A stretch of 64,000 nt of DNA from a virus (IMGVR_UViG_3300033463_000005:96001-160000), one strand, 5' to 3'; counted from the first letter of the stretch, positions 3,001 through 61,670 are shown. The notes: generated from the sequence alone by a model not told the origin. A program made the numbers and translations.

Positions 3001-4595
3001 AATGTACGTTCATCCGTATCTTCGTCAAATGTACCAAGATATTCTCTGATGACGTCATTTTGTAGATTCGTATCCAGGCTACCAATATCAGCGGTATAGT
3101 TTGCACTCTTCGCATAATTGCGAGCGGTTGCATCAGTACCTTGGATGGCTTTATTCAAGGCGCGAGTGAAATTACCACGGGCACGAGAATCAATCTGTAA
3201 AGATGTGATAATCCATTCAACAGCATTCTTCCAATATGTTCGGCCCTTATTCTTTGCACCTGTCAACAATTCAATTGCACGTTGATTTGCATGTGGCAAT
3301 CCACCATTTTCAAACAATGATGAACTATTGATGTTGATTCCTTCGTTCAACGATTCACCAACATAAACAGCGATCAACACACGTTGTGCAATATACAAGT
3401 CTGCTTCATCAATATTCGTTTGGTTTGTGTTTGTTAAACGATGAATTGTACCCGCAGACATACCAGTTTGAATCGCAGCACCGAATACACTCTTAAAATT
3501 ACCTGGTTTATCCGTTGTCAGATATCCTTCATCGGATACATTGTACTCTTTACCTGTCAACGCTTGTGTGATCTTTTTCAGATAACCAGGAATGACATTG
3601 ATAATCGTTGTTCTTGTGATACCGTCAAATGTTGCTTTCTCACGATTGTATTGGTTTTCAACATAAGAACCATAATTCTGATTCGCGGTTCTTTTTGTCA
3701 AATCACCAAAGATATCTTTGAATTTTTCAACATTGAATAATTTTGTCAACAAATCATTTTGTACATTTGCAATTGTTTCATCAATTGTATTTTTCGTACG
3801 ATTATACCAGTTATTTGCAGAGCCGAGTTTCGACCCGTTGGAACCCATCTCCAATATCATCGGAATCAACATACCAGCGGCCATACCAGCCATTTCACCT
3901 TTGGATGTTCCCATGGCACTCATACCACCGACCAAAGATGTTACTGTTGATATCATCGACATTGGCAATGCTAATTTATCCGAAGTAGCGTTCTTCAAGA
4001 AATCAAAAGCATGACCCAATGTCAAATTACCAGATGAATCAAAGATACTGGAATTTCGTATATATGGATCGGATTTCTTTGGAGAACTCAACTCAATCAA
4101 TTTATCTAACCGCTCATTGATACCGGTTAAATTCGTATTGATCTTTGTTAATGAAGATAAGATTTCCGAAGAACGTGTATTTACCGTTGTGATGATTTCA
4201 GAAGTTGTCATTGCGGATGCTTCTGCTTGTTTACCACCAATTTCATACATTGCAGAAACTTGTCCACGCATGATACCTTTCATGGATTCTGTATCCAATA
4301 CTTTCGATGTATTGGAATCATCATCTTCAATACCAAAATTTGTACCAGGATCGAATTCGTCATCATCACCCAATGTAGATGATGATCCGAATTCATCACC
4401 CCGATGAAAGAATGAATCAACTAATTTCTTGAAACCACCATTATTGCGAATTTCACGATATTTACCAGATGCAGTTTTTGCACCACCAATGACAGTATCA
4501 AATATTTCTTTTGATGAAGAAACCAATGATGTGACAGAATCAGGTGCAATGTTCGATACGAATCCTTTCGTGAAATCCAGCATTAGATTCGGCAT
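1..4595 (-). CDS. Very large tail/tape-measure-like virion protein, partial (>1530 aa, runs off window start), with a peptidase C39-like domain at ~100-490
   Basis: Absent from the ORF track, consistent with being open to the edge. ATG at 4595 after an AAGGAGGA RBS. Both ends hand-translate in the same frame (MPNLMLDFTKG... to ...RGCGPVALT...NNHYMNVLG...VSNP). Shadow + ORFs keep one phase throughout; middle not fully hand-checked. Confidence 0.8.
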   Translation of the reverse strand, partial: MPNLMLDFTKGFVSNIAPDSVTSLVSSSKEIFDTVIGGAKTASGKYREIRNNGGFKKLVDSFFHRGDEFGSSSTLGDDDEFDPGTNFGIEDDDSNTSKVLDTESMKGIMRGQVSAMYEIGGKQAEASAMTTSEIITTVNTRSSEILSSLTKINTNLTGINERLDKLIELSSPKKSDPYIRNSSIFDSSGNLTLGHAFDFLKNATSDKLALPMSMISTVTSLVGGMSAMGTSKGEMAGMAAGMLIPMILEMGSNGSKLGSANNWYNRTKNTIDETIANVQNDLLTKLFNVEKFKDIFGDLTKRTANQNYGSYVENQYNREKATFDGITRTTIINVIPGYLKKITQALTGKEYNVSDEGYLTTDKPGNFKSVFGAAIQTGMSAGTIHRLTNTNQTNIDEADLYIAQRVLIAVYVGESLNEGININSSSLFENGGLPHANQRAIELLTGAKNKGRTYWKNAVEWIITSLQIDSRARGNFTRALNKAIQGTDATARNYAKSANYTADIGSLDTNLQNDVIREYLGTFDEDTDERTLDEQVQAGKIKNKDVAKNVDRTLRASAKKAQEARLERRKQSELLGGLGASVQEMSTQTLDYVASIFYILNRGINVYSVQRDKPFGKYPLQHARGRRSTKAISTSQVYNNTPGGTDTNTPPTPQPSSSGGTDDSQSTGFQPTGSFIGDLWEIASNPFRTAVNNVKDDIAYGKDRLLSGFANVYDRHMINRSLKGLGNSVDDESDRTTVEAVLAAMQTAAMDGDGKEDLGALSSQIAKIRNPELRARVQGLVENTLSRVGSVQPAKSRIGKILMWGLGLVKKYVSPLLSKAKTFIIDYAKKLGDSFVGKLGKTIFNKILDSFKSSGMKILTGAQSVKEGVTGLAGNIVDVSKGLGEFASNIGSAAMDQIQIKRIRRGETRTIGEQAKENATLLAGLTYAGIGLDKAKDAVGTVKEKASAAAEKIGDKFRESEFGKGFMSAFDKKTLTPKTAADKATTGILDLLKSKDGGGGVLSTIVDSIKLIGEIFRDSTKEITDDMNKTEQSSTGQGTTTQSAVENRSTEEGGGFVAPPEPSGDESTGSGDGDVDVKMPSLKAPDTGGTDAAGGGDKKGGLFNIGKTLGGISKILMGIGQAVLTVIMSLSGFKALTKLITGILQKSLKPLNKAFQAIIKVLKPVVTTITKVLRQIVGYVVQIVESVIKIIQPILEAIGPIIEQLLSVLEPILELITGLVKLIMIPLVSVMKEVVVPILQTVANTLEIILGIVQVGMGLILTVLGGILTAVGVIGKIFGAPSLYETGKNMISMGTSMVSSGWGSMKSGFGKTVTMLGNAITGKSSVEQEDKQEQQVQASKTIPQLNGSPMDGIVASGDIYAGDGAQARYGAYMNMAQRGCGPVALTDAYARRTGNTLDARRLAVSMSNAGAYDASNGTSVRGYMNTSRALGMNLTPGGVTQRSLSMASPSNPITVVGSGPDFSTRRGNNHYMNVLGTSNGMAIVSNPLTGRIERKSASSLASSSLMGLYGSGDSPIEFSDTIQDALGNLKD

Positions 4596-4628
4596 ATCAT
4601 ATCCTCCTTTCTGTATATAATCAATGAT

Positions 4629-4657
4629 AAAAAGGTGTGGGCCATTGGGCCCACACC
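4629..4657 (-). terminator. Intrinsic terminator
   Basis: GGTGTGGGC/GCCCACACC stem followed by a T-run on the minus strand after 4677..5435. Confidence 0.7.
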
Positions 4658-4676
4658 CATCATCATGTTGTTTTCA

Positions 4677-5435
4677 TCAGAAGAATTGGATCAAATCAAT
4701 TTCATCAAAATGGAATGTGTTTGTCCATTTCTCAACTAATGCATTTCTCGCATCTTCGGCTCCAGACCAGTCGTCGATACGAAGTTGGATTTTCTCAAAT
4801 GCTGAACCAACATTGTTCATGTTTTTCAACATGTTGTACAATGTTCGTTTCACATCCAATGTCGCTAATTCTATAAAGGATTCGCGGCATGAAATCGGAA
4901 TTGTTTCCAGTGATAGATCGTGGTCACATTTCACAATCAGATGTACCAAACATTCCTCCGGAAAATCAAACAGTTGGATCTTATTATAACCCAACCATTT
5001 TGATGTTTGCGGACGACTGGTGACACCAGCATATTTATTAATTGCAGCACCTGTTGATGTTGCATTCAAAATATCCTGTGGATAATATGAACCAAATCCA
5101 ACAAAAGGAGTTCCAACAGTAAATGCATTTGTTGCAGCCTCAGCATTCTGATACTGTGAAGAAGCCATTTCAGCTTCTGCATATTGTACCGGAGTGAGGG
5201 TGAGATTTCCCGGAAGAAGATAGATGTTCATCTTCCGGGATGTCTCATCGGGAGATCTGAGATTCTTGATGGATTCGTATCCTTCACGGATTTGTGGCTT
5301 GAACTGGGAGAAGGTGCGAACCGATATCTTGATGATCTCCTGAAGTACAACTTCAGTTGGTTTATTAAATGGCAATGCGATTGTTTCTAATCCCAATGAC
5401 ATTTTAATATCATTGATCACATCAGAAATATTCAT
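4677..5435 (-). CDS. Putative virion structural protein (possibly neck/head completion)
   Basis: 252-aa ORF with RBS in the structural operon; function from context only. Confidence 0.4.
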   Translation of the reverse strand: MNISDVINDIKMSLGLETIALPFNKPTEVVLQEIIKISVRTFSQFKPQIREGYESIKNLRSPDETSRKMNIYLLPGNLTLTPVQYAEAEMASSQYQNAEAATNAFTVGTPFVGFGSYYPQDILNATSTGAAINKYAGVTSRPQTSKWLGYNKIQLFDFPEECLVHLIVKCDHDLSLETIPISCRESFIELATLDVKRTLYNMLKNMNNVGSAFEKIQLRIDDWSGAEDARNALVEKWTNTFHFDEIDLIQFF

Positions 5436-11636: not shown

Positions 11637-14600
11637 TTAGTAAACCGATTTAGACGTAGCAAATTTCCGTTTTTGAGCATCAGCAGACATTGATACCAAC
11701 TTTGCACGCATGCGCATCAGTTGATACAATTCTTTCTGTTGTTCCGGAGATTGCTTTTCACCATAATAATTATGGGATTTCAGATTTTCAATCTTCTGAT
11801 CAATGATTTGAATCTCGGTTGCAATTTCATCATTCGCTTCTTTGCGCAACCGTTCACGGTCTGCTAATTTCAGACCCTGTACGCCAAGATATGTTGCACC
11901 AAGAAACGGAGAAACGGCAGTAAACAGAGCAAATTTTCCAGTCTTCAATGCAAGTCTCGCAACCTTAAAGAGTGCGGATCTGTATGAAGGATTTTCAACC
12001 AACTCTGCTTTGACACGATCTTCATCTCGTTTGACAAAAGAATCGACCATCTTACGAAGCCATAATTTGGTTCTTCCAATCGGTTTGACAATTGCTCTTG
12101 CGGTATTTCCAACTTTTTGTACACCGCGTTTTGCTTTCTGGTGTAGAGAAAGCATGGCCATGTCAGCATCCTGTAATGTTGTTGACAAAGGTACTGACGG
12201 AGGAGTACCAGCATCCGATTCGACAAATAGGGGCTCTTTAGAATCCAAAAGTGCGAACACTTCCTGAACACTCTTTCCATTGGAAAAAGTATCAGGTGAT
12301 TCCTTAGAATTTGAAGAAGGCCTGGTATTATCATAATTGTTTGATGCTTTATTACGTCCAGCATGATTTGTCCGTTTATTGGACGACAAATCGTTTGTCG
12401 TAACTGTTGTCGTAGTGGTTTTACCAGAGGACAAATCATTTGTGGTGGTTGTGTTGTGGGAGTTTGTATTGTAAGTGATATTGTAAATCACCTGACCCGC
12501 ACCACCATGTGAAGGATTCTTGATGTCACCTTTGTAACCAGAGCCGAGCATATCACCAATCGATTCCGCATCTGGTGTATTCAAACGTGCTTGAATGGAA
12601 TCTGCCAAATCATCGAAATCATTTGTCGGAACATCCGGTGGAAGTTGAACATCAAGCGGAGAAGATGGATCACTGGTAGAATCATTCGATTGATCCGATG
12701 GTTTGTCATCAGACAGATTGATGCGTTCCTTCATATAGGTTGGAATGTCACCAAGTTCTTGCTCTTGAATAGATTCATCTTCTTCAACTTCTTCTGTTTC
12801 AGTGTCTTCTTCAACCGGCTCTTCTTCATCTTCATCTTCATCAGAATCAACCGGATGACCAAACACGGGCTTTCCCTCCCAATCATCCAGATGATCCAAA
12901 AGCATCTCGATATTATTCCAGAAAGGTTTGATATCGGATTTCAGAACATTTTCGATTTCGAATGGATTATCCGAGAACATGATAGAACCGTCATTGACAT
13001 TCAAATACAAACATTTGATTTGCTCTTCAATGTCATCCGGCATATCCATATCAGGATCATCAAACGGATACCATTCTGCAAACATCAGTAATCCGTTCTG
13101 AACCATGACTTTACCGATCTCGGTGTTCTGCAATGCAGCCAACATATCGGCGAATGAGAAAACATTACCAAGCATTCCACCGTTATCACATTTGATCAGT
13201 TTTCCATGCTTCGGTGGATGGTTGATGAACTCGATGAATTCTTTCGGGAGATGTTCGCCAAGTTTCTTTTCGATCTGATTGATCTTCTTCCGTTTAGACT
13301 TCTCTTTCAGCTTTGCAATGAAACCTTCTTGAATCGGCTCATCAAACAATTGATACGATTCACCAATGTATTGATCAATCTTAATTGGGGATGAGCCCTT
13401 GTTATATAGAGCATCACCAATGGAAGCAATGTCCTGGTATACAGCTTCCATGAACGCATCACAATACTTCATGTCGGACAATGACATGTCACCCAACAGT
13501 TTCATCGTATCCAAAGCGTATTCTGTCACCTGATCAGAGGTCTCAACAACATCGGTTGTTTTGGTTTGCTTCTGATACGGGTTGGCAGAACGGGAGTTCT
13601 GATTGATTCTGGCACGAATCTTTTTCACAAATCCATCCTCTGTCGGATAATCTTTTTCCTTCACATCGTCCGGAAGGAGATTATAAAGGATATCAAAATA
13701 GATACGAGAATCGAAAATGTTGAACAATGTCAAAATCGTGTTGTTTGAAATCGTAGCATTCTCTTGATTCGCCAGATTCAATTTCATGAAATCTTCGATG
13801 AAGCGAATGGTTCCCTCTTTATCAATTTTGAATGTTGTGAAAATATCGTAACGTCCGAATCTCTTGGCTCCGTTATTCTTTCGAATAATGGAAGAGTATG
13901 ATTTTGCATAATCCTTGAATGCAGGATGTTGCGTAACTTTGATGTCCCATTTGTTCTTCTTCATTGTGAAGATGTTTGCATAAATGAACGGCATCACATT
14001 ATCCGCAAACATTGTCACATCCGATTCCGGAATAGAAGAAAAATATGATGCAAGATCATCCGTATTATCACATTCACGAAGCTTCTTCAATAATGCATTC
14101 ACCCGGGATTCCAGTTGTCTAGAAATCTTCCATTTCTTTGACTTGGAATCATAAGTAACGTGCTCCGGTTTCTTCTCCGTGAAATAATTCACTGCAGCAG
14201 CTTCCTGAACAGTTTCATCAATGACGATTTCACAATCCTGGAGATCGGTGAAAGATTCGAAACGCTGTTTCTCGGTATCTTCCATCATGTCCTCGGGAAG
14301 TTTGATTTGATCATTTTCGAAGATGGATTGTACATAATCCGCACCATCGAACAGTTTATATTCGCCGGGGAATTTTGCAATGGAATCCAACTCCGGAACA
14401 GGGATCGGTGCGGTGAACAGTTGGATTGCTTCACGATACTTCGATGGAGTTGTGAACAACTCAAATGAATAGATACCGTTCAACAAGTCTTCAAACTGAT
14501 TGAAATTGTTTGCGATATATTGCAGCACTTTGAAGCCGACAAATGCGTGTAGATGATCCTGTGCAACCTGATTGGATCCATTCAGAATTGCAAACCATGG

Positions 14601-54001: not shown

Positions 54002-54046
54002 GTTAAATTGGTTTTGATGTCAAACTTTGATGGATGATATTGTGGC

Positions 54047-57000
54047 TCACTTATAAACAGGGGAGGCGCCGATGTGCCAAGCCGAGAGGGACGCCGCGGT
54101 ATACACATTAACATACCGCAAGCCGGAGTAAGCATCGTTGTCACAGTAACCACCGCGAATGGCGACGCGAACACCAGATTGATTCTGATAGAAATAATCA
54201 CAATAGTATGTCGATTGTGTGCCACCAACAACCGTCGGCAAACTTCCAAACTGTGTAGATACTTCTGTCTTGATGTAGTTGTTCGATGTCGGTGATTGCG
54301 CAACAGATGTACTGATTGCGGTATATCCTTCTCCGGTAAGATTGTACGCGGGATGCTCTTTGATCTTATAGATACCGGCATCAAGAATAAGACCAAGCTC
54401 TATATCCCATCTTTCAGCCCAGAGTGCTTCCATGCCGAAGCACTTGACTTGTGAAGTGGTGGTGGAATATCCAAAGAACTTGCCCTTGTCATTGAGCGTT
54501 CCACAGTTAAGGAAATCAGATGCAGAATTTCCGCCGGTAGAATGCCCTTGACCGAACTTGCCTTGCGTGTCAAGGCTCTTGCTGATAAGCGTGAGCAGGT
54601 CACAAAGCATTTCTTTCGACGTGTAGTCCCAAATCTGCCAACCTGTTCCAAGTGCGGACGCGGCATCGACTTCCTGCTGCGCGGTTGTGCCTGATTGTGG
54701 TTTCACTCCAGATATAGACCGCAGTTTGCCATCAACCATTGACCCTTTGTAGATCGGCAGATAAATATACGGCTTCACAACACCGTTTGCGTCCTCGTGT
54801 GCATAAGCATGGAAATCACTATCAAGCTGTCTGTCTGAAATCTCGATGTAGTTGTAGCTGCCATCGTCTGTGCGCTTTATCCACACGGTCGGGAACGCGA
54901 TCATGGCGTTCATTGATTTCGTGGAATCGGCAATATCAGACGCGGTTCCATCGAGTTTCTTTGAGTAATCGTTCGGGTCAATGTCATATGCTTCCGTGCC
55001 GTCGAAATTGAGCATGACAGGACGAGCGTTCTTGATAAACCAGACATTTTCCCAAGAACCGTAGTCGAACACACCGTTTGCGAAATCCATTCCTGCCGGT
55101 GTCATTGTTACAGCATCATGCGTATAGATGACTGCATTAGACGGATCAGAAACAGACTTGTCGATCTTGAAGCCGAAATGGACAGGTTTCGCGTGTACTT
55201 TTACAGTCATAGAAGACGGCGCTATCGTTGTTCCCACAGAAATTGTCGTTGTTCCGTCATTAGTCGGCAAAGTAACACCCGCCTGCTCGCTTGTGAGCGT
55301 GTCCACATAGCTGCCGATTTTCATCAATGGCTCGTTGACTATGCCGGTCTGCTCGTTTGCTAGGACGTACCAGACGGTGACGGGCGTGCCGGCGGCGTAT
55401 TGACTTGCAAGATATGTTTTCCACGCGTCCGTTGTCTGAACAGTTCCAGTAGAAAATGCAAGCCATTTCTGCGTCGATGCAACGCCAACGCCTACAAATA
55501 AACCGTCGTAAATAACATTAAACGGTTTCGATTCATAGTGGGTAGATATTGCTTCCCCACCAACAAGAATATCACTTGCTACGATATAGAATGATTTACC
55601 CGAGGTTCCAAGTTCAGACCAGCTCTCCGTCCCATACAGCACCAACTTCTTAATCCTTCTCGTCGTCTGCACTCTGCCAAGATAGACATTCTGCGTCTGT
55701 CCGGCGGATGTGAGGGAGATTTTATATCCATCGGTTAAAACCACATCGCCGATGGTGCAGACGAAAACAATATTGGCATCGCAGAAAATCACTGACGCAT
55801 AGACTTCTTCGGAGCCATTGTACGATGTACGCCAGACGCCATCTGATGTAATCGTTACAGATGTGCCGGGTACAATCTGATTTCCAGAAACTCTTCGGAA
55901 GCAGATTCTGAATTTTCCGTTTGAGTAAAGCCCCGCAGAGCCATTACTAACTTTTACCTGGAAATACGTCGTTTTGTATGTTGGAATCTCATCTGTCAAA
56001 TTAAATGCAAGGTAGTTTGTTCCGGTTGATAATGTAGATTCTACGGAAAAAGTTCCGTCAGAATTTTCTGTAACAGTGAAAACAGGGCTGTTTTGTCTCC
56101 ATCCGCCAGACCATCCGTTTATTTCATCCCCACACCCGTCCACCGAAACCGGCGCATCCTGTGCAGGTGTGCCGGACTGAACTGCGTTGCCGTCAATAGA
56201 CCAGCTCTTAACCGGCAAGCCATATCCTCTCACAGAGATAGACGATGTTCCGGTGAAGGTGTCAGCTCTGCCCCATGCGATTGCATAAGCTCCTGTGTCA
56301 AGAGAATATGTGCCGCCTTGTTCGGGGGTTCCGTTTGCGGTAGGATAGATGGGGTTTGTCGGGGATGGTGTTCCGGTTTGAGTTAGGAAACCTTCGACTG
56401 TGCCTGTGAGGTTTGAGGGGACTGTGATTGTTTCTGTGGTGGGGGTGGCTAGGACGTACCAGACGGTGACGGGCGTGCCGGCGGCGTATTGGTCGGCAAG
56501 GTAGGTTTTAAAAGCGTCTGCTGTCGAAAATACTGTGTCTTTGAACCTAAGACCGCTACCGCCATCAGATGTGTGCCATGACAAAAATTCTGAATACTGT
56601 CCTCCGTGTTGCGCCCATTCCGCATTTGAAATTGACACAAAATGCGAGCAGCACCAGAAAATGTCTGATGTTTCCGGTAGCGTCATCGGTTGTGTCAGGA
56701 TTAGTTTAAACGGTGCAGACGATCCGAGTTGATATGTCACCGTTTCCTGCCCCGTCAGTACCAGCTTCTTAATCTTTCTCGTCAACCCACCACTAGACAA
56801 ATCCAGTGTATCCTTATATGTGCTGATTCCACACAGTGGGTTTGTGAGACCGTGGAGGATGACTCTGGTTTTTGCTTCCCATGCTTCTTTGGTGATGCGG
56901 TAAGGAACGTATTGTGATGGTGCTATAGATCCTTCAACAACCATCATTGTATCAATGCATTGTTGAATCTCTTCCGCAGTATTTGAATCTGTTCCAGCAT

Positions 57001-57727
57001 GCTTCGCATAATATACGACAATATATGCACTATCTGCAGCAGATGTAGTTGTAATAGAATATGCGTCGGAATCAAAAACTGCACCAGATACAACCTGATC
57101 TTTATACAGAGGAAAACTGTCGACAAATCCAACAGTGAACCGGTGCAGAATAACCTGTCGTGATACGGTATATATTGTATTTGGTTTACATGGTAGCACG
57201 AACATATCACAATTTACTGATGCAACAACTTTTGTTGTGATGTACCAGTCTCCACCACTGACAATATTATTCTTATCGAACAAATTTTCTGTCCGTGCTT
57301 TTACATAAACATGATCCAGTGGCTTCTCAATACGGTATGGTTCATAAGGTAATGCTGTAGTTCCTGTATTAATCATTAACTGAAAATCATCATCTAGCTC
57401 AGGCATAGAACCGTCTGAACGCTTAATTACAACTGCAATATATGGTGATGTTCCTTGATATGAAGTAACCCATGATGTATATTCTTTTGTATATAATTGA
57501 TTTGAATCAAAGAAGCACAAGAACACGTTGAAATTAGAATTAATTGTTAAACTAAATTCACCGTTTGTTTTTATCAAGTATATACTTCTTAAACGCGTTG
57601 TGCCAGGTGTATCTTTTTTCAATTGTTCGTATGTGGCACCAACAGCTGTAGCCTGTTCTGCAACAGTTCCACGCTCTATACTTTTTTCATCAAATAGATT
57701 ATTTGTTCTTGCCCATAAATGAGACAT
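54047..57727 (-). CDS. Mosaic receptor-binding/tail fibre protein with C-terminal CLec-like DGR-target-type domain
   Basis: Repeated NLFD..Y.PY and YAAGTPVTVWYVLA modules; ends VAIRGGYCDNDAYSGLRYVNVYTAASLSAWHIGAS. Confidence 0.8.
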   Translation of the reverse strand: MSHLWARTNNLFDEKSIERGTVAEQATAVGATYEQLKKDTPGTTRLRSIYLIKTNGEFSLTINSNFNVFLCFFDSNQLYTKEYTSWVTSYQGTSPYIAVVIKRSDGSMPELDDDFQLMINTGTTALPYEPYRIEKPLDHVYVKARTENLFDKNNIVSGGDWYITTKVVASVNCDMFVLPCKPNTIYTVSRQVILHRFTVGFVDSFPLYKDQVVSGAVFDSDAYSITTTSAADSAYIVVYYAKHAGTDSNTAEEIQQCIDTMMVVEGSIAPSQYVPYRITKEAWEAKTRVILHGLTNPLCGISTYKDTLDLSSGGLTRKIKKLVLTGQETVTYQLGSSAPFKLILTQPMTLPETSDIFWCCSHFVSISNAEWAQHGGQYSEFLSWHTSDGGSGLRFKDTVFSTADAFKTYLADQYAAGTPVTVWYVLATPTTETITVPSNLTGTVEGFLTQTGTPSPTNPIYPTANGTPEQGGTYSLDTGAYAIAWGRADTFTGTSSISVRGYGLPVKSWSIDGNAVQSGTPAQDAPVSVDGCGDEINGWSGGWRQNSPVFTVTENSDGTFSVESTLSTGTNYLAFNLTDEIPTYKTTYFQVKVSNGSAGLYSNGKFRICFRRVSGNQIVPGTSVTITSDGVWRTSYNGSEEVYASVIFCDANIVFVCTIGDVVLTDGYKISLTSAGQTQNVYLGRVQTTRRIKKLVLYGTESWSELGTSGKSFYIVASDILVGGEAISTHYESKPFNVIYDGLFVGVGVASTQKWLAFSTGTVQTTDAWKTYLASQYAAGTPVTVWYVLANEQTGIVNEPLMKIGSYVDTLTSEQAGVTLPTNDGTTTISVGTTIAPSSMTVKVHAKPVHFGFKIDKSVSDPSNAVIYTHDAVTMTPAGMDFANGVFDYGSWENVWFIKNARPVMLNFDGTEAYDIDPNDYSKKLDGTASDIADSTKSMNAMIAFPTVWIKRTDDGSYNYIEISDRQLDSDFHAYAHEDANGVVKPYIYLPIYKGSMVDGKLRSISGVKPQSGTTAQQEVDAASALGTGWQIWDYTSKEMLCDLLTLISKSLDTQGKFGQGHSTGGNSASDFLNCGTLNDKGKFFGYSTTTSQVKCFGMEALWAERWDIELGLILDAGIYKIKEHPAYNLTGEGYTAISTSVAQSPTSNNYIKTEVSTQFGSLPTVVGGTQSTYYCDYFYQNQSGVRVAIRGGYCDNDAYSGLRYVNVYTAASLSAWHIGASPVYK
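55359..55402. repeat. 44-bp perfect direct repeat, copy 1
   Basis: GCTAGGACGTACCAGACGGTGACGGGCGTGCCGGCGGCGTATTG. Confidence 0.9.
56448..56491. repeat. 44-bp perfect direct repeat, copy 2
   Basis: Identical to 55359-55402. Confidence 0.9.
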
Positions 57728-57740
57728 TGATGTTCACCTC

Positions 57741-58055
57741 TCAATCATAGGTAAAGTAGACGTCTGCAGTTTTCGTTGCAAGTTGTGAATATGCGGTTTC
57801 AGACATAATTTCACCAACAATCGTTGTTTTCAAATTACCACTGGCATCTGTTGTCAAACCATCGCCGACTTTCACACCCACAACATTACTTGCGAGACTA
57901 ATTGCAGTTCCGGTAGTTAATGCATCTTGTTTTCCGTTTACAACGGTCTGTATATTTGATATGGCATTTGATTGGGTTTCCAGCTCATCTTTCGTAATCC
58001 CAATCAATGTTTTAATAGCATCTTCTGATACTACTTTTTTATCAGGAAATTGCAT
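57741..58055 (-). CDS. Short fibre adaptor-like protein
   Basis: Start MQFPDKK after GAGGT; KQDALT.G, VGDGL, YSQLATK motifs. Confidence 0.65.
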   Translation of the reverse strand: MQFPDKKVVSEDAIKTLIGITKDELETQSNAISNIQTVVNGKQDALTTGTAISLASNVVGVKVGDGLTTDASGNLKTTIVGEIMSETAYSQLATKTADVYFTYD

Positions 58056-58101
58056 AATACATACCTCTCTTTCAAGATTTTCGTGCATGATATGTTGCAC
58101 G

Positions 58102-58140
58102 GTTATTGAAACGTTTTGTGCATGTACAAACATTTCTATA
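58102..58140. promoter_or_regulatory. Back-to-back late-type motifs for the fibre genes (-) and the DGR RNA/RT (+)
   Basis: AAAC-GTTTCAA-TAAC (-, 58102-58116); AAAC-ATTTCTA-TA (+, 58128-58140). Confidence 0.5.
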
Positions 58141-58300
58141 GCACTAATCGTGTGAATCGGATCAGATGCTATAATAGCAACCATCATATATCCGTTGGTT
58201 TGAATGGATTTTCGTATATCCATACCGAACGTGGTCCATATCGCATTTATATTAAATATTTTATTTTATGAACAAGGGACATTTTTACACAAATAAAAAA

Positions 58301-58414
58301 ATGTCACCCTGCTGAGTGGCAATTGGAATAATGCTAGTAATGCAGGATTGATGTATTGGAATGTGAATAATACCACGTCGAATCGGAATCGGAATATCAG
58401 TACCCACCAATGTT
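58301..58414 (+). ncRNA. DGR template repeat (TR)
   Basis: 114 nt, AAT-rich, gaplessly matches the reverse complement of 59849-59962 with differences only at A. Confidence 0.95.
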
Positions 58415-58529
58415 GTGAAATTTATATGTGTACGTTCCAAACCACACCTCTTGGTGAAATACATAACATGTGATAATCCGTATTGGTAACGAAAGTGAAG
58501 ATTCGGTAATACCACAACACAAAGGATGA

Positions 58530-59639
58530 ATGTATAAAATGAAACGTGAATTATATGCCCCCGGGAAACCCGGGGTCACATTATTTGATGACATTATTTC
58601 CATGGATAATCTAAGAGAGGCACATAAACATGCAAGAATGAATAAAACATGGTATAAGGAAGTACAAATGGTCGATTCTGATCCAGATTATTATTTACAA
58701 CGAATTCATGATGCATTATACAGCCATACATTTCATACATCAAACTATGATATATTTGAACGCCAAGAATTTAATAAAACCCGCGTAATATATAAATTAC
58801 CATATTATCCAGATAGAATTGTTCAGTGGGCAATCATATTAAAAATTCGACACATATTGGAACGGACATTTATTTCAACAACATATTCATCTATTCCAAA
58901 TAGAGGACCTTTGCGATGTATGATAAAAGTTCACAAAGATATGTGTCATGATTATTATGGAACAATGTGGTGTCTAAAATTGGATATTCACCATTATTAT
59001 CCATCGATTGATCACATGATTTTGAAACAAATGTATCGACGATTATTCAAAGACGATGAATTATTATGGTTAATAGATGATATAATTGATTCAGTTCCAA
59101 ACGATAAAGGGGTTCCAATTGGAAATTTCTTATCACAGTATTCCGGGAATTTATATTTAACATGGTTTGATCATTGGGTCAAAGAAGTTTTACATGTTAA
59201 ATATTATTATCGATACATGGATGATATGGTATTTTTATTTGGTGATCCAAAAGTAGCATGGAGTGTATTTTCTAAAGTGACTGAATATCTGAATATAATG
59301 CTGCGCTTAAGTCTAAAAGAAAATTATCAGTTATACCATGTCGATACAGATGGCATTGATTTTGTTGGATTCAGAATTTACCATGATCATGTTTTGATAC
59401 GGAATCGAATTAAAAAGAATTATATTCGAAAAGTGAAAAAATATAGATTCAGAAAAATGACACCATCAATATTATCATCATATTCGTCATATATGGGATT
59501 TCTACAACATGCGAATACATACAATTTGCAAAAATTACATTCACGCGAAATTGATTTAAATTGGGGATTAAAACGAGATATCAAGACAATAAGAAATCAA
59601 CCATATTTCAGATTGTTTAAAACAAATAAACAAAAATGA
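58530..59639 (+). CDS. DGR reverse transcriptase
   Basis: PYYPDRIVQWAI, KLDIHHYYPSIDH, GVPIGNFLSQ (DGR-type GxxxSQ), RYMDD, GIDFVGF. Confidence 0.95.
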   Translation: MYKMKRELYAPGKPGVTLFDDIISMDNLREAHKHARMNKTWYKEVQMVDSDPDYYLQRIHDALYSHTFHTSNYDIFERQEFNKTRVIYKLPYYPDRIVQWAIILKIRHILERTFISTTYSSIPNRGPLRCMIKVHKDMCHDYYGTMWCLKLDIHHYYPSIDHMILKQMYRRLFKDDELLWLIDDIIDSVPNDKGVPIGNFLSQYSGNLYLTWFDHWVKEVLHVKYYYRYMDDMVFLFGDPKVAWSVFSKVTEYLNIMLRLSLKENYQLYHVDTDGIDFVGFRIYHDHVLIRNRIKKNYIRKVKKYRFRKMTPSILSSYSSYMGFLQHANTYNLQKLHSREIDLNWGLKRDIKTIRNQPYFRLFKTNKQK

Positions 59640-59671
59640 ATTCGGTTTTATTCATATAACAATAAAGATGA

Positions 59672-59695
59672 ATGGGGGCGCATATGCGCCCCCAT
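59672..59695. terminator. Perfect palindrome between convergent RT and target genes
   Basis: ATGGGGGCGCATATGCGCCCCCAT, identical to 33125-33148. Confidence 0.8.
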
Positions 59696-59831
59696 GGTGT
59701 ATATAGTATAAAAATCGCATACATCGGCGGCAAGTATATAAAGTTGCCGCCATTGTTTATACTAGATTCTATATTGATTACATTGCGGGCGGTATTTTTA
59801 AATGATACCTTTGCGACATTTTGTGTTCACA

Positions 59832-61670
59832 TTATGTTTGAGGATAGTAACACAGGCGGGCACCGATATACCGAGCCCGAGCCGACGCGGCATTATACAC
59901 AATCCAATACATCAATCCCGCATAACCAGCATAATACCAACGGCCACCCAGCAGGGCGACATACCAGCCATTGGAAGTATTGTGATAATTGTAATCTCCA
60001 ATAACTCCATTTGCAGATCCAGACGAATATTCAGATCCAATGAATACCCAGTCGGTATCTGAATTCCCATAACCGAATGCGGTGACATAATTGTTTGTTG
60101 TTGGTGACTTGAATCCAACATCTGTAAATCCAGTAGAAGTTCCTTCTGTGAAGGTGAAATCATTACACACAAAGAATGATACTGCTGATGATGCCGTTTG
60201 GGCATTCAGACCCATTGCAAAAGTCCATATATTACCCCAGGCATTTTCTTTACCGCGATATGACACAGCAAGTTTATTTGCTGCTGTTTGGTCGGTTCCT
60301 TGCCAATCCTTTGTAATTGTAGCATTGCCAGAAGCATTACCGAGCGATGATGTAGAACCAGTGTACGATGAACAGTTCTTTGATGAATCAGGATCAGAAC
60401 CGAATGCAACACCATTTCCGAGTGACAACTGTGAATTGGCAGAAGCATACTCAATAATGAATAACATCTGATCCACCGATGCCACTTTGAATGTTTCAGA
60501 GTGCCACCCAGCACCACGGTTTTGCGCAAGTTTCTCCGAATTTGCCCGCGTCAAATTATTAGATGTTGTTTCACCGGACATTGCACGCACATTTGCAATA
60601 GATGAAAGTTTATCTTCGTCGACATTCATAACCTGTGAATCATCAGTAATGTATGCAGATGCAGATGTATCATACAGGCATCCTTCATATGCACTAATGA
60701 GAACATAATCAACAACATTACCAGCTTCATTGATAAATGCAGGATGGAGTTTGAATCCAGGAATTGGATAATCGGAAAGATAATAATTACAAGTTCTAAT
60801 ATGGTAACCACCCAATGGGTTTGCATCCTTTGTTACTGGTTCCACCTTGTAATAGAACTTCGGTTGATAAACCATTACCTGTCCCATTGAGCCATCTTCT
60901 GCAAAGTTTGCGTCACCATACCACGATGTGATAGTACCATCATCAGCAACAGTACAGCGCTTTCTATCTTTATAAGCATGGAAAGCAGATGGAATACCAG
61001 CAACGATTCGGCAGTTCGATGCATTCTGGTAATCAATATATGTCTGAACATATGTGTTGTAATCCCACATTGCAGTGATATCTGCTGCTGTAATTGGGAC
61101 AATCGCATTATATGAATTCGTAATAGAGGAATAGATACCGGATGACTTAACTGGATTTGTGGAAGATTGTAATGGTTCATTATCAAATGTCAACCCATCA
61201 ATATCAGTGATTTGTATTTTTACGATAATAATGTATCCGCTACCATTCAAACCGGTTGCACTATATACATCCAACGTATTATTTGCAAATGCATTGATAC
61301 CGTATCCGGTGAACTCTTGAACACCGGATTCTGCAGTCTTTCTCAAAATGATATGATGCTTATAACCATTGATTGTTGGCGTAAACAGAATCTCTGAATA
61401 ATCACCATTTCTCATGCTTTGAAGTTTTGCCACATCTGCAGATGTTGGTTCAAATCTCCATGTAACAGAACCAGTTGATGTTGCTGTTCCAGTAATTTCG
61501 GGAACATTCGCAAGATTCGACAGTTTCGTTTGAAACGCGGTTGTGAAATCGTTCGTGGACAAACCTTTTCCACTCTCGGTATCTACCTTCAAATCAAGTG
61601 CTTGTTGCACCAATTTTATCAGTTCTTCAACACCTGAACGATTCACAAATTCTTTTGTTTCGAATGGCAT
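59832..61670 (-). CDS. DGR target: fibre/receptor-binding protein with C-terminal CLec-like domain
   Basis: KVD..GKGLSTNDFT N-motif; VMVYQPKFYY, GFKLHPAF, YRGKENAWGNIW; VR at the 3' end. Confidence 0.9.
   Translation of the reverse strand: MPFETKEFVNRSGVEELIKLVQQALDLKVDTESGKGLSTNDFTTAFQTKLSNLANVPEITGTATSTGSVTWRFEPTSADVAKLQSMRNGDYSEILFTPTINGYKHHIILRKTAESGVQEFTGYGINAFANNTLDVYSATGLNGSGYIIIVKIQITDIDGLTFDNEPLQSSTNPVKSSGIYSSITNSYNAIVPITAADITAMWDYNTYVQTYIDYQNASNCRIVAGIPSAFHAYKDRKRCTVADDGTITSWYGDANFAEDGSMGQVMVYQPKFYYKVEPVTKDANPLGGYHIRTCNYYLSDYPIPGFKLHPAFINEAGNVVDYVLISAYEGCLYDTSASAYITDDSQVMNVDEDKLSSIANVRAMSGETTSNNLTRANSEKLAQNRGAGWHSETFKVASVDQMLFIIEYASANSQLSLGNGVAFGSDPDSSKNCSSYTGSTSSLGNASGNATITKDWQGTDQTAANKLAVSYRGKENAWGNIWTFAMGLNAQTASSAVSFFVCNDFTFTEGTSTGFTDVGFKSPTTNNYVTAFGYGNSDTDWVFIGSEYSSGSANGVIGDYNYHNTSNGWYVALLGGRWYYAGYAGLMYWIVYNAASARARYIGARLCYYPQT
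59849..59962 (-). repeat. DGR variable repeat (VR)
   Basis: 23 substitutions versus TR, all at TR adenines. Confidence 0.95.

Follow-up and report, generated by a model that had tools for sequence, protein, structure and literature searches.

A probable orphaned DGR variable region on a phage tail fibre, with templates of its family in two other phages

The 1226-aa tail fibre of a large phage ends in a variable region, VR2, that was produced by a DGR lineage other than the one resident beside it. Templates of the cognate family adjoin related fibre genes in two other phages, one a sister and one temperate, whereas the phage studied here has no such template, no reverse transcriptase of that lineage and no GC hairpin behind VR2. 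We consider it probable, at roughly 0.7, that VR2 is the tip of a receptor-binding module that this phage took up without the retroelement, and that it is now static.

The analysed DNA, referred to as the window, is 64,000 nt long and is taken from one virus record of 258,509 bp, of which it covers bases 96001-160000. This record is linear, has 38.8% GC and no terminal repeats, and is estimated to be 96% complete. A second assembly (258,521 bp) carries identical P0001 and P0002 and is therefore uninformative on the dynamics of the variable regions. The features of interest, in window coordinates, are the following.

54014-54049 (-): 3' junction of the fibre gene, in which the stop codon is followed by GCCACAATATCATCC..., lacking both GC hairpin and template (TR-less junction)
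54047-57727 (-): fibre gene P0001, 1226-aa ORF
54047-56917 (-): GC-richer, foreign part of the fibre gene, codons 271-1226
54050-55210 (-): C-terminal receptor-binding domain, aa 840-1226, from phrog_5302 and fold matches
54058-54172 (-): VR2, orphaned DGR variable region, 115 nt, fibre codons 1186-1223
56918-57727 (-): native AT-rich N-terminal part of the fibre gene, codons 1-270
57741-58223 (-): 160-aa ORF
58301-58414 (+): TR1, template of the local DGR, found by sensitive self-comparison and not cognate to VR2
58530-59639 (+): RT1, reverse transcriptase (Pfam RVT_1), the sole RT of the genome
59832-61670 (-): P0002, 612-aa ORF, target of the local DGR
59849-59962 (-): VR1, true adjacent target of TR1, at the 3' end of the P0002 gene

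The fibre gene and the resident DGR

An earlier note on this DNA had described the 1226-aa ORF as ending in a domain paralogous to the local DGR target, and this is borne out: the C-termini of P0001 and P0002 are 27% identical over ~300 aa (BLASTP, E 6e-10), within a common domain of ~390 aa. Both proteins match phrog_5302, a ‘tail protein’ family (E 3e-79 for P0001 and 1e-83 for P0002). An AlphaFold model of P0001 aa 880-1226 has a pLDDT of 94, and its best PDB match in Foldseek is TaqVP (5vf4; E 1.6e-11, TM 0.51), followed by Mtd (1yu0-1yu4), formylglycine-generating enzymes (FGE) and TvpA. As modelled, the domain has the C-type-lectin/FGE-like fold of DGR variable proteins.

The segment at 54.0-56.9 kb, noted before as more GC-rich than its flanks, is delimited by a real compositional step with a boundary near 56917. 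Codons 1-270 of the fibre gene have 35.9% GC (GC3 23%) and codons 271-1226 have 46-51% (GC3 47-52%), while the gene start and the region upstream of it are 94-96% identical to two other phage contigs (L021 and L056). The gene also contains an internal in-frame repeat (55359-55436 and 56448-56525, 1089 nt apart), the copies of which share 86% identity over 78 nt and do not differ in their first 44 nt. Homology to the modules of other phages begins just 3' of the copy at 55359-55436, at ~55400.

The resident DGR behaves as expected towards its adjacent target. TR1 and VR1 differ at 23 positions, every one a TR1 adenine, and a relative of P0002 (P0168) differs from it at 4/566 backbone residues (0.7%) but at 12/40 VR1 residues. 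A second site cognate to TR1 lies in the same genome outside the window (G000:C1:243170-243283, +), 89 kb from the template and 87 kb beyond the end of the DGR, with 19 adenine and 3 non-adenine mismatches to TR1. It is internal to a 746-codon open frame (241687-243927), in which ~210 further codons follow the site. Non-adjacent targets of phage-associated DGRs reportedly lie mostly within 50 kb (PMC5758913); that TR1 reaches a site 89 kb away indicates that remote targeting is possible in this phage.

The surroundings of the resident DGR differ in two related contigs. A single 454-aa gene in L021 and L049 fuses a segment similar to P0002 (aa 42-161, 79% identity) to the end of the 160-aa ORF, of which it retains the last 61 aa (93%). 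The ~3.3 kb between these parts in the window (57926-61190) hold RT1, TR1, the lectin domain of P0002 including VR1, and codons 1-99 of the 160-aa ORF, so that this tract resembles a DGR cassette that has entered a structural gene, or one precisely lost in L021 and L049.

The relation of VR2 to TR1 is of a different kind. The tail of the fibre gene is indeed colinear with VR1 and TR1, as had been stated, and aligns without gaps (62.7% over 102 nt, E 2e-5). The many non-adenine differences from TR1 reported earlier are also present: over 114 nt there are 24 mismatches at adenines and 30 elsewhere, including ATTCGC for CTGCTG. In a survey of 372 DGRs, no target had more than 11 non-adenine differences (PMC5758913), and against this maximum TR1 cannot have written VR2. 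A target of the resident DGR would differ from TR1 at adenines only, with minor exceptions, and VR2 does not.

The codon argument of the earlier note, that variable positions end in C or T as expected from AAC or AAT templates, stands in part. At the ten AAT codons of TR1, VR2 has TAC, GAC, AAC, TAC, AAT, TAT, ACC, CTC, GCT and CAC, all ending in C or T; the first GCT and the TCC that had been listed are not at AAY positions of the template. Codons with these endings also make up 20/27 of the other VR2 codons and 60% of codons across the domain, so the signal within VR2, taken alone, is suggestive but weak (p about 0.006 to 0.05).

VR2 and its cognate template family

That the tail belongs to another DGR is shown by the cognate template family, which we found in two phages. 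L052 is a 51.7-kb contig (48% GC) of a temperate phage with an integrase, and one of its proteins, P0160, shares 76% identity with P0001 667-1226. Behind the target gene follow, in order, a GC hairpin, a 115-nt template (TR2, 12223-12337) and an RT. The L052 variable region differs from its TR2 at 19 adenines and at no other base, and the translation of TR2 is an N-rich version of the fibre tip. VR2 is 84% identical to this TR2 over 115 nt, with 12 adenine and 7 non-adenine mismatches. The L052 RT has 25-29% identity to RT1, and identity as low as 25% marks TR2 and RT2 as a second DGR lineage.

L056, a 12,130-bp contig, comes from a sister of the window phage and is 96.2% identical to it over 61693-57717, which covers P0002, RT1, TR1 and the 160-aa ORF. 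Its 788-aa fibre ends in a variable region of the VR2 family, behind which there is a GC hairpin as in L052 and, ~100 nt on, a TR2 that is cut by the contig end (12046-12130, 85 nt). The L056 variable region differs from this template at 16 adenines and nowhere else; VR2, compared over the 85 nt, has 8 adenine and 5 non-adenine mismatches to it. Both templates are thus close to VR2, but neither is an exact one for it, as each is for the variable region of its own phage. No avd gene is seen between target and RT in the TR2-type cassettes of L052 and L056. The segment L056:5638-12130 places two DGR lineages side by side, TR1/RT1/VR1 on the one hand and fibre variable region, hairpin and TR2 on the other; with the contig ending inside TR2, no RT2 is seen in it.

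Adjoining templates are also present in more distant homologues (L005, L007 and L048; 34-58% identity), with RTs in L005 and L007. The 58%-identical relative in L048 (4151-4523) has its template 90 nt behind the variable region, with 10 adenine and 5 clustered non-adenine mismatches, and the following 8 kb contain no called RT. A separate arrangement was seen in a 244-kb phage (G005, 99% complete, one RT at 4224-4742), where tandem arrays with a unit of ~150-165 nt occur at three distant loci (L008:8020-8960, L009:7700-8645 and L010:7845-8385). The unit (~50-55 aa) resembles the last 55 residues of the fibre domain, and its copies are 63-75% identical.

Variation among relatives follows the template. 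An exhaustive profile-free search returned 2795 representatives of the fibre-domain family at E <= 1e-3, including a close clade with 74-98% identity over the last 87 residues, in which 17 proteins have 16 different tips. With the 16 distinct variable regions mapped on the L052 template, the 14 codons that have A at position 1 or 2 show a mean of 6.9 different residues, against 2.1 at the 24 other codons of the variable region and 1.9 at 39 upstream positions. In a seven-sequence codon alignment, variable sites in the last 45 codons are distributed 22/19/11 over the three codon positions, often with three or four different bases, whereas in the 75 codons before the tip the distribution is 12/10/31, mostly third positions. 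First- and second-position variation in the tip, set against third-position variation upstream, is the pattern of a DGR and not that of ordinary divergence. The earlier note would have abandoned its reading had there been no cognate TR anywhere and had homologues been conserved at the variable positions; templates of the family exist, and the homologues vary there, on the adenine codons of the template. VR2 is a true variable region of the second DGR lineage (TR2/RT2).

Synonymous divergence in the clade falls from ~5 to ~1 per 20 codons in the ~120 nt that precede VR2 (54172-54289). Homogenisation driven by the template is insufficient as an explanation of this low divergence, since 54172-54289 lies outside the L052 TR2.

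Absence of the retroelement, apparent stasis and module exchange

The earlier note proposed a search of the full genome for a match to VR2 that differs only at A. This was run on both strands, with mismatches tolerated where the genome has A, and no VR2 template was found in the 258,509 bases; the best candidate of the scan is TR1 itself, with 28 non-adenine mismatches over the 110-nt query. The TR region of L052 matches only VR2 in the window genome. A second RT is likewise absent from the genome, which gives a single RVT_1 match, and the L052 RT finds RT1 only.

Wider searches were similarly empty. Scans of viral contigs with short motifs returned only the variable region of G001, a phage described below, and one chance match (L045); neither a TR2-like motif nor a relative of the module was found in 185,579 species genomes, and blastn against 50,697 GenBank phages gave no match. 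Short pseudo-ORFs encoded by TRs, looked for in a protein database, yielded only one fragment of a variable region.

The cis elements behind VR2 are reduced as well. The GC-rich start of the IMH is kept at the 3' end of VR2 (GGCGCCTCCCCTG, 13 nt), the sequence departs from the L052/L056 version of the IMH 8 nt after this start, and no GC hairpin lies within ~60 nt downstream, before the terminator. A GC hairpin stands behind the variable region in 5/5 loci with a template in cis (L052, L056, L048, L005 and L007). The position that TR2 and the hairpin occupy in L056 and L052 is fully assembled in the window genome and holds unrelated sequence. A complete DGR comprises a cognate TR, an RT of its lineage and an IMH followed by a GC-rich inverted repeat, and this set is missing for VR2; what is present is an adenine-mutagenised variable region with no adjoining TR or RT, which is how a partial DGR or orphaned target is recognised. 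BPP-1 cannot do without its IMH, and its homing is efficient only with the inverted repeat (summary in PMC5758913). By analogy, VR2 would be a poor or incompetent cDNA acceptor, because the hairpin is missing and the IMH is changed.

The same TR-less junction occurs in L018, L019, L049, L050, L051, L053 and L054, although the contigs of most relatives are partial and may have distant templates. The fibre gene of L049 is split by in-frame stops in a loop of the lectin domain (TGA AGA TGA, L049:7440-7480) into parts of 975 and 167 aa, so that the orphaned fibre is decaying or the contig is misassembled at this point.

Stasis of VR2 is seen relative to G001, a phage known from a 198.5-kb record that is 86% complete and has no RT and no TR2. 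Its module is 87% identical to that of the window over 1361 nt, and the last ~200 nt are identical; the fibres differ at 39/399 residues outside the variable region and at 0/41 within it. Since the ~200 identical nucleotides include synonymous sites and the module is otherwise 6-13% diverged, this identity points to a recent tract transfer rather than to long vertical stasis. A common variable region is also found in P0003 (596 aa) and P0171 (1080 aa), which are different fibres. Among the fibre relatives no pair with identical backbone but different VR2 was found, whereas such pairs exist for VR1.

The module itself appears to be mobile. The last 1.36 kb of the fibre gene are 81-91% identical to modules of 48%-GC temperate and 35%-GC large phages, and the module GC of 46-51% fits the 48%-GC contigs (L052, L018, L019 and L051) and stands out in large phages of 35-39% GC. 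The module tree, which gives neither the number nor the direction of captures, is star-like with low support, and phages of 35% and 48% GC are intermixed in it. Together with the pairwise identities of 81-91%, taken over the part outside the variable region, this intermixing of phage types indicates that the module is exchanged repeatedly, and its composition points to transfer from the 48%-GC temperate lineage. The eight TR-less loci share one 3' junction and have eight different variable regions, which would follow either from repeated recombination near the 3' end with DGR-linked alleles or from homing from a template elsewhere. Recombination near the 3' end does seem to occur, as the window phage and G001 have the same variable region with different junctions.

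These observations can be joined in the following model. The second DGR lineage, with TR2 and RT2, rewrites the fibre-module family at template adenines, and the module circulates by recombination between temperate phages of ~48% GC and large phages of 35-39% GC. The window phage probably received a module that stops at the stop codon, minus the hairpin, TR2 and RT2 seen in the L056 and L052 cassettes. Its resident TR1/RT1, of another lineage, serves VR1 and one remote site but not VR2. The current VR2 would then be one past output of mutagenic retrohoming, inherited as a fixed receptor-binding tip and changing only via point mutation or module exchange. We infer that VR2 is at present not rewritable.

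The earlier note had left open whether the module was captured and frozen or is diversified in trans. The core common to both options, a variable region of another DGR lineage, is now established, and the frozen option is favoured because TR2, RT2 and the GC hairpin are missing and because the variable region is identical in the ~10% diverged G001 module. Ongoing diversification in trans, by TR2 and RT2 on a co-infecting L056-like phage or an L052-like prophage, is in our view unlikely, though it has several observations on its side. The GC-rich start of the IMH is retained in VR2, with full flanking homology to the TR2 family; TR2 is carried by a sister phage of 96% identity, which likely has hosts in common with the window phage; the eight TR-less alleles all have different variable regions behind one junction; and non-adjacent targets are documented (PMC5758913), the local DGR using one at 89 kb. 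Such homing would have to proceed, however, without the downstream hairpin and with the distal IMH replaced after 8 nt. It would also have to leave VR2 identical in G001 despite ~10% backbone divergence, and no pair of identical backbone and different VR2 was found, in contrast to VR1. The 5-7 non-adenine differences between VR2 and the known TR2s, and the lack of a TR2-like motif or module relative in the 185,579 species genomes, weigh in the same direction. The broader proposal, in which the TR-less fibre alleles, VR2 among them, are rewritten during co-infection or in lysogens by the TR2/RT2 of another phage, is somewhat more doubtful still. If true, it would mean that the retroelement of one phage diversifies the receptor-binding tip of a different phage, and it would explain the different variable regions of eight alleles with one TR-less junction.

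A cognate TR2, with or without RT2, in the ~4% of the genome outside the record is improbable. A linear record without terminal repeats and at an estimated 96% completeness leaves room for it, but the L056 and L052 templates lie directly behind the fibre gene, where this genome is assembled and unrelated, and the 258,521-bp assembly carries the same genes. The chance that the VR2 tail is no DGR product at all, and merely a paralogous lectin-fold tip under ordinary diversifying selection, is smaller again. The weakness of the NNY-codon signal within VR2 (p about 0.006 to 0.05) would fit such selection, which nevertheless fails to account for variation among relatives that maps to the adenine codons of an independently found template, for perfect adenine-only TR/VR pairs in two relatives (L052 and L056), or for a tract with low synonymous change in which 14 codons are saturated. 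Finally, low-fidelity writing of VR2 by TR1/RT1 is scarcely credible, even with VR2 only 4 kb away and one fold in both targets: the 30 non-adenine mismatches in 114 nt compare with 0 at VR1 and 3 at the remote site, and a single homing event would turn VR2 TR1-like. The account of a module captured without its retroelement and now static is accordingly the one that we carry forward.

Implications and relation to known systems

These results indicate how the target of a DGR can part from the retroelement, and that a hypervariable receptor-binding module moves among phages by recombination, with or without template and RT. Live and fossil variable regions can coexist in one phage, and a VR-like tail beside a working DGR is not necessarily a target of that DGR, which is a warning for annotation. 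Nature provides a matched pair in the window phage and L056, without and with TR2 and hairpin, in which the needs of cDNA acceptance could be studied; the practical use is modest.

The DGR of Bordetella phage BPP-1 is the prototype of these systems, with the mtd variable region, IMH, hairpin, TR and brt. Like VR2, its variable region is C-terminal on a lectin-fold receptor-binding tail fibre, and Mtd is among the fold matches of the domain studied here. The VR2 family further resembles BPP-1 in having AAY template codons that become NNY and a variable region whose 3' end carries the GC-rich start of an IMH. What BPP-1 has and VR2 lacks is a cognate TR, an RT of that lineage and a GC inverted repeat downstream. 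TaqVP, the DGR variable protein of Thermus aquaticus (5vf4), is the best structural match, yet has 15-16% sequence identity and is a cellular protein, whereas VR2 is carried by a phage fibre.

Remote DGR targets are common and are defined by adenine-only differences from a resident TR (Wu et al. 2018, PMC5758913). As in Treponema denticola, VR2 sits in a second target-like gene kilobases from the RT, but unlike remote targets it is separated from the resident TR by 30 non-adenine mismatches. The closest parallel in gene content is given by the partial DGRs of Nanoarchaeota DUSEL4, which comprise a target, VR and cis elements with no RT or TR (Paul et al. 2015, PMC4372165) and which were read as fossils or as targets served from elsewhere (PMC4372165). 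In them, as in VR2, past adenine mutagenesis is plainly visible in a variable region that has neither template nor RT next to it. VR2 differs from them in its setting, the lectin-fold tail fibre of a 258-kb phage, in that the cis hairpin is also gone, and in that the donor-type cassette has been identified elsewhere, complete in a temperate phage and, as far as its contig reaches, in a sister phage. VR2 is a new instance of an orphaned DGR target, in a giant phage, for which the cassette, up to TR2, is found in a sister phage.
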